Shown here: one piece after another, positions 1 to 6,727 of the stretch | Numbering within the stretch: position 1 is the first letter of the stretch | Layout of the letters: each line of letters starts with the position of its first letter | Assembly (NCBI GenBank): GCA_048938385.1 | Contig: JBHLMG010000003.1 | Span: forward strand, 21,090 to 85,089 | Source of the DNA: Promethearchaeota archaeon | GTDB lineage: Archaea > Asgardarchaeota > Hermodarchaeia > Hermodarchaeales > Hermodarchaeaceae | Direction: 5' to 3' | DNA: 64,000 nucleotides | Notes under the pieces: model-generated | The model's input: only the letters and a program-made list of their open reading frames with translations | What the model was told of the DNA's origin: nothing | The model's database searches: none | Translations under genes and position numbers: made by a program

Positions 1-659
1 CAATGGTTCGATCACCCCCTGCTATACGCGACGAGCAAATACAATTACAAGCCATGATTGAAACAATTTCGGCTACGGCGACAGACCATCAAGCCTTCCA
101 AGAACAAGAACAAGTGGTCCAACAACTCTATCAATATCTTAAGGACCGTCAGCTCCACTTGGAGAATCTAATGACCGATGTCGACCGACGGTTAACCCGG
201 TGGCGAGAGGAACTCGAAACCACAATTACGACCCTAAACCACCGGATGAACCAACTCCTAAGCCATTTCCTCAAACAGGTTAAATTGATTGTGCGGTACC
301 CTGACGAACCTAGTCGTGCTGAACTCCACCTCCAACTCGCCATCAATCGAAAGGGCCAATGGCGAACTTATCAAGAAATGTCTGGTGGAGAAAGGGTTCT
401 TGCTACTCAAACATTCATTCTTGCTCTCCATACGCTAGCGAAGAGTCCCTTGCATGTGATAGATGAATTCACTCAGCGCCTCGATGAAGCCAGTCGTGCA
501 GCGGTGTTGAGCATTGTACAACGAACACTTGGCTTGACTAAGACGGATGCTCACATCTATCCTCAGTTTCTGTTGATGGCTCCTTCCACAGTAGGTCTTC
601 AAATCCCTGAAGCTATGCACCATGTCATCCTTCTCAAAGGGCAGGTGAAAACATCATGA
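1..659 (+). CDS. SMC-family ATPase, C-terminal part (5'-truncated by window), SMC5/6-like head
   Basis: Coiled coil followed by signature MSGGER, Walker B/D-loop SPLHVIDEFTQRLD and QFLLMAP. The spacing and residues resemble SMC5 (PFRVVDEINQGMD..QYFFITP) and SMC6 (DEFDVFMD) more than canonical Smc (DEVDAALD..QFIVITH). Confidence 0.85.
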   Translation, partial: MVRSPPAIRDEQIQLQAMIETISATATDHQAFQEQEQVVQQLYQYLKDRQLHLENLMTDVDRRLTRWREELETTITTLNHRMNQLLSHFLKQVKLIVRYPDEPSRAELHLQLAINRKGQWRTYQEMSGGERVLATQTFILALHTLAKSPLHVIDEFTQRLDEASRAAVLSIVQRTLGLTKTDAHIYPQFLLMAPSTVGLQIPEAMHHVILLKGQVKTS

Positions 660-1453
660 ACACGAATGATACTTCTACTCACCTGCGCAGTTTACCACGA
701 AGGAAACCTTGGCGAAAATCATTCCATCAAAATTACAAGAGGTACCGGTTAACCTTCTACGGTACCAAGAACCTCATCATCACTCTTTGGAACCTGACGA
801 AGAAATATGAGGGTGCCCTCAAACACCAAGAAGTAGTTCCCATCAAAGAAGCTGAAATAGACCGGGAAGAAGTAACTGAATCCTATAAAATCGTAGAGAC
901 ACCCTGGGAACGTGATCTCGATGGACGGTTCTATCATCACCTCGCCACTATGCAACACCGAAGGGATTCAAATCTTGCCATACCAGAAATTTCTCCTCAT
1001 GAATGGATATACTACTTTGCTAATGAAGTCAAACGACGCGCGACCCCCCTTTTGTATTTGGTCAGCCCTGAAAAAGCAGTACCACCCTTTGGACTTCCGC
1101 CCGAAGATGCTCCCGTCGCATTAGCTAACCCTCCCACACCGACTGACCAACAAGCCATGCAGAAACTCAAGATACCCTACGAAGAGTTATCCTATGATTC
1201 ATTAGAACTCTACCGTAACGCGCTGATTCAACGGTTGCAAGGCAAACGCATCAACTATTTTGATTTAGCCAATCATCTAACGAATTGGGAATTAGATCTG
1301 TTAAGTCAAATGATAAGAGATAACACCATCAATGCAACCTTCGGAAAATCAGCGATTCAGTTTCACAAATCTTCACGGAATATAACTAGAAATCCAGAAT
1401 TCGTCGCTGTCGCAATAGCTGCCCGAAACTATGAGGAGGTCTCGACTCAGTGA
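656..1453 (+). CDS. putative kleisin, Nse4-like C-terminal winged helix
   Basis: ATGA overlap with the SMC gene. Pro-rich central linker. C-terminal LIQRLQGKRINYFDLAN...LLSQMIRDNTINA resembles the Nse4 C-terminal motif (INxFxF..N....SFLIRDG). Confidence 0.55.
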   Translation: MNTNDTSTHLRSLPRRKPWRKSFHQNYKRYRLTFYGTKNLIITLWNLTKKYEGALKHQEVVPIKEAEIDREEVTESYKIVETPWERDLDGRFYHHLATMQHRRDSNLAIPEISPHEWIYYFANEVKRRATPLLYLVSPEKAVPPFGLPPEDAPVALANPPTPTDQQAMQKLKIPYEELSYDSLELYRNALIQRLQGKRINYFDLANHLTNWELDLLSQMIRDNTINATFGKSAIQFHKSSRNITRNPEFVAVAIAARNYEEVSTQ

Positions 1454-2094
1454 CAACAGACCCTGTCAAGCCCACCAACTCAGTAACCCCTCCTGAGACC
1501 CCAGATGAAGAAGAGGAACCAGAAGAACGCCATCTTCTCGGCCAACTGTTCGCTGCCCTTACTGCGCGGTACCGCAACGATGATGGGCAATTGAATATTG
1601 GTATTAAGCGCCAGGATTTACTTGAAGCACTTCACATTAACAAAACTGGGCTTGATCGCCTATTGGATCTCCTTCGACAGCAAATTATCCCTCTTGGGCT
1701 AGAACTGGTGGAATACCGGCTTGGTCGAGACACGCTTTATTGTATTCGTACAATATATGGGGTTCCTGGCGAACTCTCAGATCCTGAATACGCCGTTTTG
1801 GGTGTTATTATTGCCAAAATTGAACAAGCGGGTCAAGGACGAAGGATACGCCGTATAGCCACTAAGGCACTTGAAACGGTACTCGTTTCCCGAGGTCGGC
1901 TTTCACGCTATCAACTCGATCGAATTTTACGCCGGCTTCTGGAACTCGGATATATCTCTCGAAGTGCACGACGCATCGAATATGGTCCACGACTTGAACT
2001 GGAATTTGATCCTGAACGTAGAGAAGCAATTGCTAACGCCGCCACTATATACCTTGCGGGGGCAACATCAGCTACCGAGGATGATACGCGATGA
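1450..2094 (+). CDS. KITE-type tandem winged-helix protein, MAGE/Nse3(Nse1)-like
   Basis: GTGA overlap. Motifs IKRQDLL, GLELVE, LGVIIAKI, LRRLLELGYI and YGPRLELEF parallel MAGE/Nse3 (PIKRxD, FGxELxE, GLLxxIL, LVxxxYL, WGPRAxxE). Confidence 0.7.
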   Translation: MTTDPVKPTNSVTPPETPDEEEEPEERHLLGQLFAALTARYRNDDGQLNIGIKRQDLLEALHINKTGLDRLLDLLRQQIIPLGLELVEYRLGRDTLYCIRTIYGVPGELSDPEYAVLGVIIAKIEQAGQGRRIRRIATKALETVLVSRGRLSRYQLDRILRRLLELGYISRSARRIEYGPRLELEFDPERREAIANAATIYLAGATSATEDDTR

Positions 2095-2549
2095 AGCTTG
2101 ATCTGTCCACCGTAGGGATATCCTGCGTCGCTTGTGGAAAGCGCACCACGCTTGAACAGGCCATTCAGAGCGGGTGGCATCAATGTCTTCGCTGCCAGTT
2201 CTTCATTGATCCACAATGCCTCCACATAGTTCAAGATACCATGGGGGGCATTTGTCCCTCCTTCAGCCAAGGTGTGACCCGCCATGGCTTACAACGTGCA
2301 GACATTCCCTCTGAACAGATTCTCATCTTCGTTAAAGACCAATACCAAAAAGGACGAATTGGTGCCCTGATTGATTCATTGTTCTATACCAAACCCACTC
2401 CTCTGTTACCTCCACAACATGACGAGCCAAGTGCAACGATAACTGAAGAACCTCTAACGCGGGAAGAAATCTGGCGAAGGTATGGCCTCGTTTTAGTCCG
2501 GCGGACGCAAGGTAAGTGGGTGGCTTGGGAAAAGGTTGGCGTAACCTAA
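2091..2549 (+). CDS. small zinc-finger protein (RING-variant or ZZ-like)
   Basis: ATGA overlap. Pattern C12-x2-C15-x16-C32-x2-C35-x4-D40-x2-C43-x11-C55-P...H65. Confidence 0.65.
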   Translation: MKLDLSTVGISCVACGKRTTLEQAIQSGWHQCLRCQFFIDPQCLHIVQDTMGGICPSFSQGVTRHGLQRADIPSEQILIFVKDQYQKGRIGALIDSLFYTKPTPLLPPQHDEPSATITEEPLTREEIWRRYGLVLVRRTQGKWVAWEKVGVT

Positions 2550-2619: not shown

Positions 2620-2976
2620 TTGGAGACGAATGGTTTGACAGAGCACAAGCCTTACAGTTGGGTAAAGCACGCAGTTCGAAAATGGAAACAATTCTACTAT
2701 GAGATTTTACGGGCTGATGGGCAAATCGACTTATCCAATCCTCTTAGCATGATTTTCAGTCCTGAGTTCCTGCTTACTAAGATTAGTGATGTTTCACCCC
2801 CCTCAGAAACAGCGCCCACAAAACAAGAACACACACCTCCCTCTGACTCAACACCAGCAAGCGATTCTGTTAGTAAGGATCTGAAAAAACGAAGAAAGGG
2901 CCGTTTCCCTTTAAAAATCAAAGAAATTCAAGCACTGTCCATTCAATCCAAATCTTTCTTCTCAAAGTGCTTCTGA
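2620..2976 (+). CDS. hypothetical protein
   Basis: 118-aa ORF filling the gap, with a low-complexity S/P/T middle and basic C-terminus; no recognisable motif. Confidence 0.4.
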   Translation: METNGLTEHKPYSWVKHAVRKWKQFYYEILRADGQIDLSNPLSMIFSPEFLLTKISDVSPPSETAPTKQEHTPPSDSTPASDSVSKDLKKRRKGRFPLKIKEIQALSIQSKSFFSKCF

Positions 2977-2977
2977 G

Positions 2978-3946
2978 TCATTCAAGGTCGAGTTCTTGGA
3001 CAATTTTTTCTACAAGGATTGCTGCACTTTTCTTTGTTCCCGCTGATTCTGTTATTACTTCCTCTTCTGTGTCTTCAGGCAAAGGTGGTAATCCTGCTAA
3101 TGTACGCACTATCCCCGAAATAGCGTGGCGTGCTACAATGACTTCTGAACCTCCTGATAGTAGAACGATTAACCGCCCTTCGCAAACCTCCTCTGCAGTA
3201 GTCAGTAAGATCTCTGTCATTGCTGGAAACGCATTCAGAGATAATTGAAACCCTCCGTAGTCGAGGGCATGAGCATCATGACCCATATTCCATAAAATCA
3301 CTTGGGCTTGATTCTTCTTCGCAAGGGGGGGAACTAATCGCTTAAGGGCGTCAACAAAAGAAGCGTCGCTACAGTTACCAGGAAAAGGCACATCCACATG
3401 TCGAGCTGAAATGACATCGATTTCCTCATAATAACTTGCCTCGAAGTTCAGATGGTACACTCCCTCATCGTCACCGAGAATATCACGGGTTCCATCTCCC
3501 GGATGAGGATCCGTATCCACGATGAAGAAACGCTCTACCTTGAATTTTTGCTGTAAATTCCGAACTAACAGGGCTGAATTATTGTAATAACAAAAGCCCC
3601 AGAAAGAATCCCGGCTGGCGTGGTGTCCCGCACATCCAGTGAATACAAAGGCGTTTCGAGCTTCACCTTTCCAAACAGCTTCACCCGCTCGAACCGCCGC
3701 TCCGGCTGATACCACTGATGCAAGGTGATATCCTGATTTTTTTACCAATTGAATATGCTGTGGGGTGTGAACTTGCGACAACAGCGTATCAGCTACCGTG
3801 GGCGCCTCTTCTACCATTACTCCTGGTGAATCTAAGGTCCCAGTCGCTTGTAAATACTCGAAGGCAGGTTTTACACGACCTGCAAGGACGGGATATCCTT
3901 CAGCAGACATTAGTCGATGATACAGCACAAGTGTTCTACCTTGCAT
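2978..3946 (-). CDS. histone deacetylase family protein (Zn-dependent amidohydrolase)
   Basis: GHHA, GFC, DTDPHPGDGT and GHDAHALD motifs. Start placed at ATG (MQGRT); the ORF is open to 4012. Confidence 0.85.
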   Translation of the reverse strand: MQGRTLVLYHRLMSAEGYPVLAGRVKPAFEYLQATGTLDSPGVMVEEAPTVADTLLSQVHTPQHIQLVKKSGYHLASVVSAGAAVRAGEAVWKGEARNAFVFTGCAGHHASRDSFWGFCYYNNSALLVRNLQQKFKVERFFIVDTDPHPGDGTRDILGDDEGVYHLNFEASYYEEIDVISARHVDVPFPGNCSDASFVDALKRLVPPLAKKNQAQVILWNMGHDAHALDYGGFQLSLNAFPAMTEILLTTAEEVCEGRLIVLLSGGSEVIVARHAISGIVRTLAGLPPLPEDTEEEVITESAGTKKSAAILVEKIVQELDLE

Positions 3947-4084
3947 CCAATCACAACAAGACTCTACTATTACGGGCTTAGGATTAATACAATTGCATTT
4001 GTTTGTTTCCAATTTTTCTCGCTGAATTGGATGTTTCCTCCCTCTCTATGACTGCCCTTAACCTATTAATGGACGAAGTAAGCG

Positions 4085-6727
4085 ATGATGGATGGGTTAA
4101 GTCAAAAAGAAATAGGAGCAAAGGTGTATACTAATCAGAACCCCTCGGAAGAACCCAATTTGACAGCAAAGTTCCCAAAGGACTTCTCCAAAATAGAAGA
4201 ATTACTTTCAAAGGGGCAATACCAAGAGGTGCTACAACGAATTGAGGTTGTGTTGCAGAAAGCCCGTAAAAATGAAAACCTCTTATTTGAATTTGATGCC
4301 CTGATCTTGAAGGCAGAGGCTAATTGGCGTCTAGGCAGACACGAAGAAGGGTACCGCTTTTTGATAGAAGGAGAGGGAGTTCTTGCACAAATTGAAACCC
4401 AGAAATTAGTGGATAGTACAGAAATCCAGCGAAGAAAAGCAAGATTAAGGCATCATGAGGGTATTTTCTACTGGTTTAGAGGTGATCTCGAAAAAGCCAT
4501 AGATTCGCATCAACAGAGCTTAAGAATCAAAACAGAACTCGGTGACCGACGGGGCATGGCAAGGTCATTCAACAATCTTGGTCTCGTATATTGGTCAAAG
4601 GGTGATCTTCGCCAATCGCTAAACTATTACCAACAGAGCCTTGTTATCAATGAAGAGCTTGGCGACAAACGCGATATTGCGGTTACGCTCACAAACATGG
4701 GGAACGCGTACACCCGGTTAGGTGATCTCGAAAAGGCTCTGGAGCTTCAAAATCGGAGTTTAACCATCAGAGAAGAATTGGGAAACAAACATGATATTGC
4801 ATTATCGATCATCAACTTGGGTGCCGTTTTCCAATTAAAGGGGGATCTCAACCAAGCGTTAGAGTGTTATCAACGAGGCTTAGTTCTCTTTGAGGATTTG
4901 GGTATCAAACGCGATATTGCCTTGGCTCTGAACAATCTTGGAAATATTTTCGAATGGAAAGGCGATCTCGATCGAGCGCTAGACTATTTTCAACGGAGTT
5001 TAGATGTATATGAGGAATTGGGCTACACAGAAAACATCGCCCTATTACTCTCTAACATAGGTGAGGTTCATCGAAAGAAAGGAAATCCTGAAACAGCACA
5101 AGAGTACTATCAACAGGGTTTGACGATATTCTCTGCGATGGAAAACGACCCTTTAATGGCGGTTATTCTTTTAGAACTCATCTGGGTTGGTATGGAAAAA
5201 GAAGATTCAAGTCTTATTGAAGAATCACTCGATAGGCTGAAACAAATCAATGAACGAAATGATAATCCAGTCATCGATCAACACTACCGTATTGCTACCG
5301 CCCTCGTCCTCAAACAGAGTAATCGGGTCCGTGAGAAAATGCAAGCGGAAACCATTCTCCAAGAAGTGGTCAACGAAGCAGTAGTCAACCATTCACTGAC
5401 AGTCACAGCGATGATCCATCTTTGCGACCTGCTCATCTCAGAATTGAAGATGACTGGAGAAGAAGAGTTGTTTGGAGAAATCAAAAACCTGACGGAACAG
5501 TTACTCAATATTGCTGAACAACAAGCATCTCAGTTCCTACTCACAGAAATTTATCTCCTTCAATCTAAACTAGCCTTAATAGAACTTGATATGGGACAGG
5601 CAAAGAAATTACTTGCAAAAGCATTGCAAATCGCCAATGAAAAGGGTTTAGACGGCATCGCCCGTACTGTGAATCAAGAATATGAACTGCTTCAGTCACA
5701 AGTGCAAAAGTGGGAACTAATCATCCAACAAAATCCTTCCAAGCAAGAAATGATTGATCAAACCAAACTTGATGATCTGCTCGGAAAAATGATTCAAGAG
5801 ACCGTCACTGCCCTCATGGAAGAACGGGGGATTTCAGGGGCATTACCCAAGAAGAAATACAACCTGGAATATCATGACTTCCTCAAAGATAGCTCAAAAA
5901 CCGTTAAACACCATTTCCGTGTGGGCATAGCTCAAATTGGACTATCTCAGAATGGTGACATTCTTAATGAATTGTATCAAGAGCAGGCACCAGGACTCTT
6001 TGGATTACAAGGCGACAAAGTAGGTGTGGTAAAGGAAACTCTTAGAAACATGGTCGAGCAAGCCAGCTCCGAGAAGGTTAACATCCTTATTCTCCCAGAA
6101 CTCACTGTTGACTTGAATTATCCCGCATTACAGGCTGAAGTGTTAAACTTAGCTAAAAGCTATAACATGTATTTGATTCCAGGCTCTTATCACGATTCAA
6201 AAACTAAACAAAATTGGAGTATAGTGGTTTCTCCTGAAGGAATACTCTGGAAACAAGAGAAACACATACCAGCGATAATCCACTTTGAAAATAAAAGAAT
6301 AACCGAAGGTATTGACACAAGTTCGACACCTCGAACCATCATAGTCGGTAACACTGAATATGGACGAATCGCCATTGTCCTCTGCCGAGACTTCCTGGAC
6401 ATGGATTTACGCGTCGACTTGAAAAACTTCGACCCTCCCATAGACCTAATCATCAACCCTGCGTTTACTCCTGTAACCGCGGATTTCAAGGCTGCCCACT
6501 TTGATGCTCGTCGATCAATTTACGCGTACTGCTTTTTTGCTAATGTTGCCGAATTCGGTGATTCTCTAATCTACACCCCTGAAAAAGACCGGACCGAAAG
6601 AACAATCCCACCGAGGGAAGAAAACCTAATTTACAAAGATATAGATCTGTTTCAACTTCGTTCAGAACGCAAAAAATGGGATCTCGAACAGAAGAAAAAA
6701 CACGGATTCATTCAAAGTACTCGTTAG
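4085..6727 (+). CDS. TPR-repeat protein with C-terminal carbon-nitrogen hydrolase (nitrilase-like) domain
   Basis: About 6-7 TPR units (NNLGxxY..GDL..AL.YYQ.SL). C-terminal ILILPELT / KQEKHIPA / VLCRDFL give the E-K-C triad. Confidence 0.85.
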   Translation: MMDGLSQKEIGAKVYTNQNPSEEPNLTAKFPKDFSKIEELLSKGQYQEVLQRIEVVLQKARKNENLLFEFDALILKAEANWRLGRHEEGYRFLIEGEGVLAQIETQKLVDSTEIQRRKARLRHHEGIFYWFRGDLEKAIDSHQQSLRIKTELGDRRGMARSFNNLGLVYWSKGDLRQSLNYYQQSLVINEELGDKRDIAVTLTNMGNAYTRLGDLEKALELQNRSLTIREELGNKHDIALSIINLGAVFQLKGDLNQALECYQRGLVLFEDLGIKRDIALALNNLGNIFEWKGDLDRALDYFQRSLDVYEELGYTENIALLLSNIGEVHRKKGNPETAQEYYQQGLTIFSAMENDPLMAVILLELIWVGMEKEDSSLIEESLDRLKQINERNDNPVIDQHYRIATALVLKQSNRVREKMQAETILQEVVNEAVVNHSLTVTAMIHLCDLLISELKMTGEEELFGEIKNLTEQLLNIAEQQASQFLLTEIYLLQSKLALIELDMGQAKKLLAKALQIANEKGLDGIARTVNQEYELLQSQVQKWELIIQQNPSKQEMIDQTKLDDLLGKMIQETVTALMEERGISGALPKKKYNLEYHDFLKDSSKTVKHHFRVGIAQIGLSQNGDILNELYQEQAPGLFGLQGDKVGVVKETLRNMVEQASSEKVNILILPELTVDLNYPALQAEVLNLAKSYNMYLIPGSYHDSKTKQNWSIVVSPEGILWKQEKHIPAIIHFENKRITEGIDTSSTPRTIIVGNTEYGRIAIVLCRDFLDMDLRVDLKNFDPPIDLIINPAFTPVTADFKAAHFDARRSIYAYCFFANVAEFGDSLIYTPEKDRTERTIPPREENLIYKDIDLFQLRSERKKWDLEQKKKHGFIQSTR

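Follow-up and report, generated by a model that had tools for sequence, protein, structure and literature searches.

The stretch of DNA analysed here (the window, 64,000 nucleotides of contig JBHLMG010000003.1 of the Hermodarchaeaceae assembly GCA_048938385.1; G000:C22:21090-85089) begins inside a four-gene operon that probably encodes a second structural maintenance of chromosomes (SMC) complex of this Asgard archaeon. We consider it likely that the complex is of the archaeal SMC5/6-related type and that, besides the SMC ATPase, it contains a kleisin (open reading frame 2, ORF2), a tandem winged-helix kite (ORF3) and, as a constant fourth subunit, a zinc-finger protein (ORF4) linked to conjugation of a ubiquitin-like protein (Ubl). 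All parts of the operon are single-copy in the source genome, whose assembly of 2.48 Mb is 90% complete. The complex counts as the second one because a canonical Smc-ScpA-ScpB operon sits on contig C23, where genes for Smc (1187 amino acids, aa), ScpA (248 aa) and ScpB (182 aa) follow one another and match Pfam SMC_N, SMC_ScpA and SMC_ScpB. Archaeal SMCs of this kind were defined as ‘SMC5/6-related aSMC’ by Yoshinaga & Inagaki 2021 (PMC8665677), and operons that join them to an Nse4-related kleisin and an Nse1/3-related kite have been described for archaea of the TACK and Asgard groups (van Hooff, Raas, Tromer & Eme, bioRxiv 10.1101/2024.01.07.573240). A first-pass annotation of the window, made from its letters, had proposed an archaeal one-SMC, one-kite SMC5/6-like operon; the architecture was right and the idea is not new (bioRxiv 10.1101/2024.01.07.573240; PMC8665677). 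What is new relative to the literature searched is the lineage's kleisin, the zinc-finger gene as an obligate fourth member and the recurrent coupling of this gene to a set of E1, E2, Ubl and JAB genes. Since SMC-kleisin-kite operons are already published, the zinc-finger gene and the adjacent conjugation genes form the novel part, and full-text searches of incomplete coverage returned no paper that ties an archaeal SMC5/6-like operon to a zinc finger or to genes for a Ubl.

The four frames lie in succession on the + strand (3..659, 656..1453, 1450..2094 and 2091..2549 in the ORF listing) and are joined, as the first-pass annotation had noticed, by start-stop overlaps of 4 nucleotides, ATGA at 656-659, GTGA at 1450-1453 and ATGA at 2091-2094, each of which has a purine-rich, Shine-Dalgarno-like run on its 5' side. 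The peptides that it had quoted are all found in the translations (SGGER, SPLHVIDEFTQRLD, QFLLMAP, RINYFDLAN, LLSQMIRDNTINA, IKRQD, GLELVE, LLELGYI and YGPRLELE). The arrangement of the four genes is not due to chance, because the order kleisin-kite-finger is kept in 28 of the 28 related loci with upstream sequence. ORF4 always comes directly after the kite gene, and loci with longer flanks read SMC-kleisin-kite-finger. The proposed architecture of SMC, kleisin, kite and zinc finger was borne out.

In a survey of 400 Asgard species genomes the ORF4 family was detected in 66 and the ORF2 family in 65, with both spread over the same 8 families and 14 genera. Presence is near-universal inside the positive families (for example 18/18, 28-29/31, 11/12 and 3/3), and neither gene family was detected among the 135 genomes of one Asgard family. 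The few mismatches between the two families are incomplete genomes or matches to a paralogue. A few finger, kite or SMC homologues carry non-Asgard labels (Bathyarchaeia, Bathyarchaeota and ‘Glassbacteria’; L073, which is DATKZI010000059.1, P0014 and P0202), and these may be either binning or labelling noise or a sign of presence outside Asgard archaea.

Only the C-terminal tail of the SMC lies within the window. Its N terminus was found by inspection upstream, as the first-pass annotation had advised, and the full gene (L002:9849-12749; 966 aa from ATG; P0163) begins about 2.24 kb before the window. A longer frame (L002:9792-12749) would give 985 aa from a GTG codon; the ATG 19 codons inside it is the likely start because database homologues of 966 aa begin there. 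The protein has the make-up of an SMC family ATPase, with a split ABC-type head and long coiled coils between its halves. Pfam SMC_N matched residues 36-941, including both head halves, at 9.2e-25, and the Walker A (GANGSGKT), signature (SGGER) and Walker B/D-loop (HVIDEFTQRLD) motifs are intact. The Pfam SMC_hinge model gave no match in the SMC; a family profile (A4) aligned unbroken across SMC6 including the hinge, and a conserved G431-P432...G455 lies in the middle of the protein.

Compared as a single sequence the SMC is equidistant from many SMCs. Profile A4, built from 16 family members (Hermod/Thor- and Heimdall-labelled, 25-81% identical to the operon SMC), placed five SMC6 sequences at the top of the PDB (5.5e-35 to 5.6e-24, 87-124 bits), each aligned end to end in one stretch of about 930 profile positions. 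Below these came Pyrococcus Smc head constructs with 81 bits and full-length SMC4, SMC2, SMC3 and SMC1 with 55 to 31 bits, and Rad50 was not reported among the matches. P0210, a eukaryotic SMC5 orthologue (1e-100 to SMC5) and the sole eukaryotic protein from a word-indexed homologue search, scored 64 bits with the same profile, the source genome's own 1187-aa Smc 49.6 bits and other canonical Smc 28-47 bits. A tree of 17 rows rooted on the source genome's Rad50 (IQ-TREE, LG+C20+F+G4, PMSF, that is posterior mean site frequencies) grouped the Asgard family with SMC5 at 84/90 and separated canonical Smc as a clade at 99/96, which is consistent with the published SMC5/6-related placement without proving it. 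Profile scores and tree, both of limited sampling, put the family closer to Smc5/Smc6 than to canonical Smc or SMC1-4. They support the earlier suggestion that the protein is nearer to SMC5/6 than to canonical Smc, Rad50 or JetC.

ORF2 had been called Nse4-like from its motifs, and this resemblance found no support. Pfam and NCBIfam gave nothing usable for the protein, Nse4_C matched nothing in the source genome at E<=10, SMC_ScpA matched only the gene on C23, and none of 50 members of the ORF2 family (66 representatives at 50% clustering among 1.8 billion proteins) matched a kleisin family of Pfam, Nse4_C and SMC_ScpA included. The profile of these 50 sequences had no match in the PDB at E<=10, Nse and Scp chains included. 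The AlphaFold2 (AF2) model of ORF2 has a mean predicted local distance difference test score (pLDDT) of 47, with the N-terminal half disordered or helical. At about residues 180-237 it shows the C-terminal winged helix that the first-pass annotation had asked for, with an H-b-H-H-b-b topology and a pLDDT of 70-89. Foldseek returned nothing at E<=0.001 for this model; a condensin II chain ranked first (E 0.21) and the ScpA C-terminal domain 29th (E 0.72), and these matches were set aside as generic to winged helices. The ESM Atlas gave no usable lead for ORF2 or ORF4.

Modelling of the SMC head together with ORF2 gave an interface score (ipSAE) of 0.70 against 0.38 for the best control, and the mark applied to this score is one that 58 of 80 solved complexes attain, as do 2 of 110 mismatched pairs. 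At least 45% of contacts are common to the three runs, and the pLDDT of ORF2 is at least 55. In the modelled interface residues 63-109 of ORF2, the most conserved block of its family, lie on SMC residues 191-220 and 790-814, that is on both strands of the head-proximal coiled-coil neck. Contact with the neck is the defining feature of the kleisin N-terminal domain, and at the level of the model the N-terminal helical domain of ORF2 makes it. The confident part of the modelled contact is that of the N-terminal helices with the neck, and the C-terminal winged helix is not confidently on the head. We accept ORF2 as the predicted kleisin of the complex because of the modelled neck contact and the position of its gene between those of the SMC and the kite. 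In Supplementary Table 3 of van Hooff et al., Hermodarchaeum sp016839805 and one Thorarchaeia genome have SMC5/6-related SMCs and one Nse1/3-related kite each and no Nse4-related kleisin (bioRxiv 10.1101/2024.01.07.573240); ORF2 fills the gap that this survey left for Hermodarchaeum and the sampled Thorarchaeia.

The AF2 model of ORF3, computed with 21 homologues, has a mean pLDDT of 79 and consists of two winged helices followed by C-terminal helices. Two consecutive winged helices in a protein of about 200 aa are what is seen in kites, and the tandem winged helix that had been predicted is present by both AF2 and Foldseek. The best structural matches were Pyrococcus ScpB at the top, Nse3, MAGE-G1, MAGE-A11, Nse1, MukE and JetB, with E values from 5e-5 to 4e-3. 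The predicted structure settles the fold of ORF3 as a kite and does not separate the subfamilies. A claimed resemblance of its motifs to MAGE/Nse3 was not upheld, the Pfam models MAGE and SMC_Nse1 being silent at E<=10 and the structural neighbours tied. Pfam SMC_ScpB matches only the gene on C23 and not ORF3, a profile of ORF3 found no kite chain among PDB sequences, and in Pfam/NCBIfam the protein returned MarR_2 at 0.0028, which is not usable.

With ScpB among these matches, the operon might be taken for a fast-evolving duplicate of a condensin-like Smc-ScpAB complex, its affinity to SMC6 and SMC5 being an artefact that stems from divergence and from the choice of chains open to comparison. 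Such a duplicate would account for the top rank of Pyrococcus ScpB, for the support of only 84/90 for the branch that joins the family to SMC5, and for NCBIfam SMC_prok_A/SMC_prok_B as the best family models of the single SMC sequence (about 1e-33, far below cut-offs). The profile scores speak against it, since SMC6 (87-124 bits) and SMC5 (64) lie above the organism's own full-length Smc (49.6) and full-length SMC1-4 (31-55), and so does hhalign, which gave probabilities of 0.5% for the ORF2 family against Asgard ScpA and 1.1% for the ORF3 family against 30 Asgard ScpB. Moreover, a second type of archaeal SMC groups with SMC5/6 in two published phylogenies, one of which credits Hermodarchaeum with an SMC of this type and a kite related to Nse1/3. 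We therefore regard a duplicated Smc-ScpAB as very improbable.

The fourth gene of the operon is as constant as the others. ORF4 homologues from eight Asgard families align over their full length (alignment A7), with C12, W29, C32, C35, C43, C55, H65, E126 and W128 invariant, with C, H or D at position 15 and with D or C at position 40. This gives eight potential metal ligands in the pattern C-x2-[CHD]-x16-C-x2-C-x4-[DC]-x2-C-x9-11-C-x7-10-H, followed by a C-terminal domain with the conserved pattern EE.W..G.V.V.R..GK...WE. The first six ligand positions fit what we take to be the spacing of a C4HC3 finger. Below threshold, Pfam offered FYVE, zf_VAL1_N, zf-UDP, C1, RING_2/4, IBR and B-box (RING_2, RING_4, zf-UDP, FYVE, C1 and IBR at E 0.004-0.2) and the PDB offered the RINGs of TRIM21, RNF4 and RING2 as well as TFIIH p44 (TRIM21 and RNF4 at E 0.6-8), nearly all of which are cross-brace fingers. 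The single sequence returned C1 domains at about 0.15 in Pfam/NCBIfam, which is not usable. We treat the RING-like character of ORF4 as a lead from its sequence.

It is quite possible, if short of probable, that ORF4 is instead a structural or DNA-binding finger (a zinc ribbon, or FYVE- or C1-like) with no part in Ubl transfer, and that the Ubl genes nearby are independent of it. No RING family was significant in Pfam or PDB profile searches, the best sub-threshold families include FYVE, VAL1_N and C1, and the last ligand pair, C-x7-10-H, departs from RING spacing. Family f7 keeps the SMC-kleisin-kite-finger operon without adjacent E1, E2, Ubl and JAB genes, and genomes of the source organism's own family have a second, paralogous finger inside the Ubl cluster, which could be the real E3. 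However, the finger of ORF4 is a paralogue of this very protein (35% identity, E 3e-8), its eight conserved ligand positions suit a two-zinc cross-brace pattern, and in the Heimdall-labelled loci the ORF4 homologue is the sole zinc-finger gene of a co-directional run of nine genes. We favour a putative two-zinc finger protein that is linked to Ubl conjugation.

This link comes from the neighbourhood of the operon. A Ubl conjugation gene set faces the SMC operon at L002:5552-9624 (G000:C22:14551-18623), 2.5-6.5 kb before the window start (Table 1). In the source genome's own family the Ubl genes are divergent from the operon. On two Heimdall-labelled contigs (L020 and L021; SMC 30% identical) the genes are co-directional and read SMC-kleisin-kite-finger-JAB-E1-Ubl-E2-like-small ORF, and JAB and E1 genes directly follow the finger gene in families f2, f12 and f29 as well. 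The E2-like protein had no match among PDB sequences. In the hydrothermal-sediment relative L016 the finger paralogue of the Ubl cluster is a 174-codon frame (L016:3214-3735, - strand) that adjoins a transglutaminase-core protein of 561 aa, twice the size of that in the source genome. A 487-aa ResIII/Helicase_C helicase of the XPB/Rad25-like kind (L002:3230-4693, + strand) lies beside the JAB and E1 genes, and likewise in L014.

Such a neighbourhood could also belong to a system of defence against plasmids or viruses, in which a Wadjet- or Lamassu-like SMC-kleisin-kite DNA sensor and Bil-like Ubl conjugation would tag invader or host proteins and would not serve chromosome maintenance. The PADLOC models LmuB (6e-27) and JetC (4.6e-13) match the SMC, both generically, and E1-E2, BilD and JAB models match the neighbouring genes. 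By language-model features, bacterial clusters named ‘ubiquitin-conjugating enzyme E2’ are nearest to the E2-like protein in the Atlas (score 0.91, with about 175 features in common), which we use as a lead only. IS605-type and helicase genes adjoin one Heimdall-labelled locus, and eukaryotic SMC5/6 is itself known to restrict episomal DNA (PMC9458440). Against defence, the JetA, JetB, JetD and LmuA models of PADLOC were silent on ten operon and neighbouring proteins and nothing there matched ORF2-4. The operon contains no nuclease gene and its order is unlike jetABCD; Wadjet has a JetD Toprim nuclease along with JetA and JetB, and here the genes that follow ORF4 are one of 118 aa and one of the histone-deacetylase family. 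The operon's flanks, which vary from lineage to lineage, hold housekeeping-like genes, and the operon is single-copy and present in almost every genome of the positive families, whereas defence systems are patchily spread. This lineage-wide, single-copy distribution therefore favours a core function, and we find a role in defence improbable.

Table 1. Genes of the SMC operon and of the Ubl cluster that faces it. Plain coordinates are positions in the window; the others are given on L002.
Feature	Coordinates	Strand	Basis
SMC5/6-related SMC ATPase, C-terminal 218 codons	1..659	+	Pfam SMC_N, motifs, profile A4, tree
ORF2, 265 aa, predicted kleisin	656..1453	+	C-terminal winged helix (AF2), complex model, family distribution
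ORF3, 214 aa, kite (tandem winged-helix), GTG start	1450..2094	+	AF2, Foldseek
ORF4, 152 aa, putative two-zinc finger (residues 12-65) and conserved C-terminal domain	2091..2549	+	alignment A7, synteny
118-aa ORF 3' of ORF4	2620..2976	+	conserved in close relatives only
Ubl, 105 aa, ending ..PEVG	L002:9307-9624	-	sequence
E2-like protein, 250 aa, HPR...G.AC motif	L002:8506-9258	-	motif
75-aa ORF in Ubl cluster		other strand than SMC	
Zinc-finger paralogue of ORF4, 128 aa	L002:7895-8281	-	35% identity, E 3e-8
Transglutaminase-core protein	L002:7026-7898	-	
JAB	L002:5552-6163	+	
ThiF-type E1	L002:5901-7022	+	

On the other side of the operon, the 118-aa ORF is 48% identical to L014:11137-11508, which holds the same position there, and no counterpart was found at this position in L016, L020 or L021. 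It has a Lys/Arg-rich tail and may be a lineage-specific fifth gene outside the core module. A 344-aa ORF (2978-4012, - strand) is convergent with the operon; its positional equivalents in L014, L015 and L016 are Hist_deacetyl proteins (PF00850), so that a deacetylase neighbour is kept across the Hermod/Thor-labelled relatives. It is followed by an 880-aa ORF (4085-6727, + strand) whose N-terminal half, judged by eye from the translation, contains a long region of TPR-like repeats.

Taken together, these data lead us to propose the following arrangement for an SMC5/6-related complex with four subunits. The 966-aa SMC would form a homodimer. The N-terminal helices of ORF2 would lie against the neck coiled coil of one head, with its C-terminal winged helix presumably seated on the other head's cap, and the kite ORF3 would bind the middle of the kleisin. 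ORF4, putatively a two-zinc finger protein, would be the invariable fourth subunit. Its neighbourhood of E1, E2-like, Ubl and JAB genes is a hint that it may couple the DNA-bound complex to Ubl conjugation, in the way of the Nse1 RING and the Nse2 SP-RING in eukaryotic SMC5/6. The cellular role could be DNA repair or the handling of abnormal or extrachromosomal DNA.

Several observations weigh against this proposal. In the PDB, Smc is represented by constructs of the head alone, so that scores over whole proteins favour full-length SMC6, and the tree has one eukaryotic row, several long branches and a key branch that is not strongly supported. Neither ORF2 nor ORF3 significantly matches Nse4, MAGE or Nse1 in sequence, and for this reason it is the SMC and the literature that carry the SMC5/6-like label. 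The fold of ORF3 ties Nse1, Nse3/MAGE, ScpB, MukE and JetB and does not set Nse1/3 apart from ScpB or JetB. The complex model does not confidently place the C-terminal winged helix of ORF2 on the head cap, and its passing of the mark may reflect likeness to solved SMC-kleisin structures. The non-RING spacing of the last ligand pair of ORF4, its lack of a significant RING match and the Ubl genes of family f7, which are not adjacent to the operon, count here as well.

To our knowledge no eukaryotic SMC complex is less well understood than SMC5/6, and no other has ubiquitin and SUMO ligases built in as subunits. The tracing of SMC5/6 to archaeal roots is recent and covers the SMC, kleisin and kite only. 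A four-gene archaeal version that is often wired to its own E1, E2, Ubl and JAB genes would be a small, expressible system. It could address what the ligase arm does for the SMC motor, when the ligase link arose, and whether the kleisin is a ligase substrate as reported for Nse1 and Nse4. We are led to speculate, tentatively and in the belief that it is rather unlikely, that the partnership of SMC5/6-type complexes with ubiquitin-family conjugation predates eukaryotes, that ORF4 is an E3-like adaptor and that Nse1 possibly came from the fusion of a kite gene and a finger gene. If this were true, it would contradict the current view, since van Hooff et al. find the Nse1 RING absent from archaeal kites and regard it as a eukaryotic innovation (bioRxiv 10.1101/2024.01.07.573240).

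Among known systems, Wadjet (JetABCD) and MukBEF likewise combine an SMC, a kleisin and a kite, and JetB and MukE are structural matches of ORF3. The studied operon differs from them in having no JetD/Toprim nuclease gene and another gene order, in the silence of the JetA and JetB PADLOC models and in an SMC profile that favours SMC6 over MukB-like proteins. With Smc-ScpAB it shares the logic of a homodimeric SMC, a kleisin and a kite dimer as well as the gene order, and ORF3 counts ScpB among its best structural matches. However, the ORF2 and ORF3 profiles show no resemblance to ScpA and ScpB from Asgard archaea, the operon's SMC falls short of Smc by about 220 residues, and Smc-ScpAB has no zinc-finger subunit. 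The published archaeal SMC5/6-related operons are closest in layout, being second SMC operons beside a condensin/cohesin-related one, found in Asgard archaea and ordered SMC-kleisin-kite with one SMC and one kite. Here ORF2 takes the place of the kleisin that was not found in Hermodarchaeum and the sampled Thorarchaeia, and that survey describes neither a fourth, zinc-finger gene nor a link to Ubl genes.

The core of eukaryotic SMC5/6 is made of Smc5-Smc6, the kleisin Nse4, the kites Nse1 and Nse3, a C4HC3 variant RING on Nse1 and the SP-RING SUMO ligase Nse2. The archaeal operon has one SMC in place of the heterodimer and one kite in place of Nse1 and Nse3. No Nse2 or Nse5/6 is seen here, and the Nse4, MAGE and Nse1 Pfam models are silent. 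Its finger forms a protein of its own, to which a further C-terminal domain belongs, and the ligand pattern is not the C4HC3 of the Nse1 finger (PMC8750328). In common, the SMC profile matches SMC6 over its full length, kleisin and kite have the same architecture, and there is an association with ubiquitin-family conjugation. The finger is moreover encoded right after the kite, mirroring the order of winged helices and then RING in Nse1 (PMC8750328).

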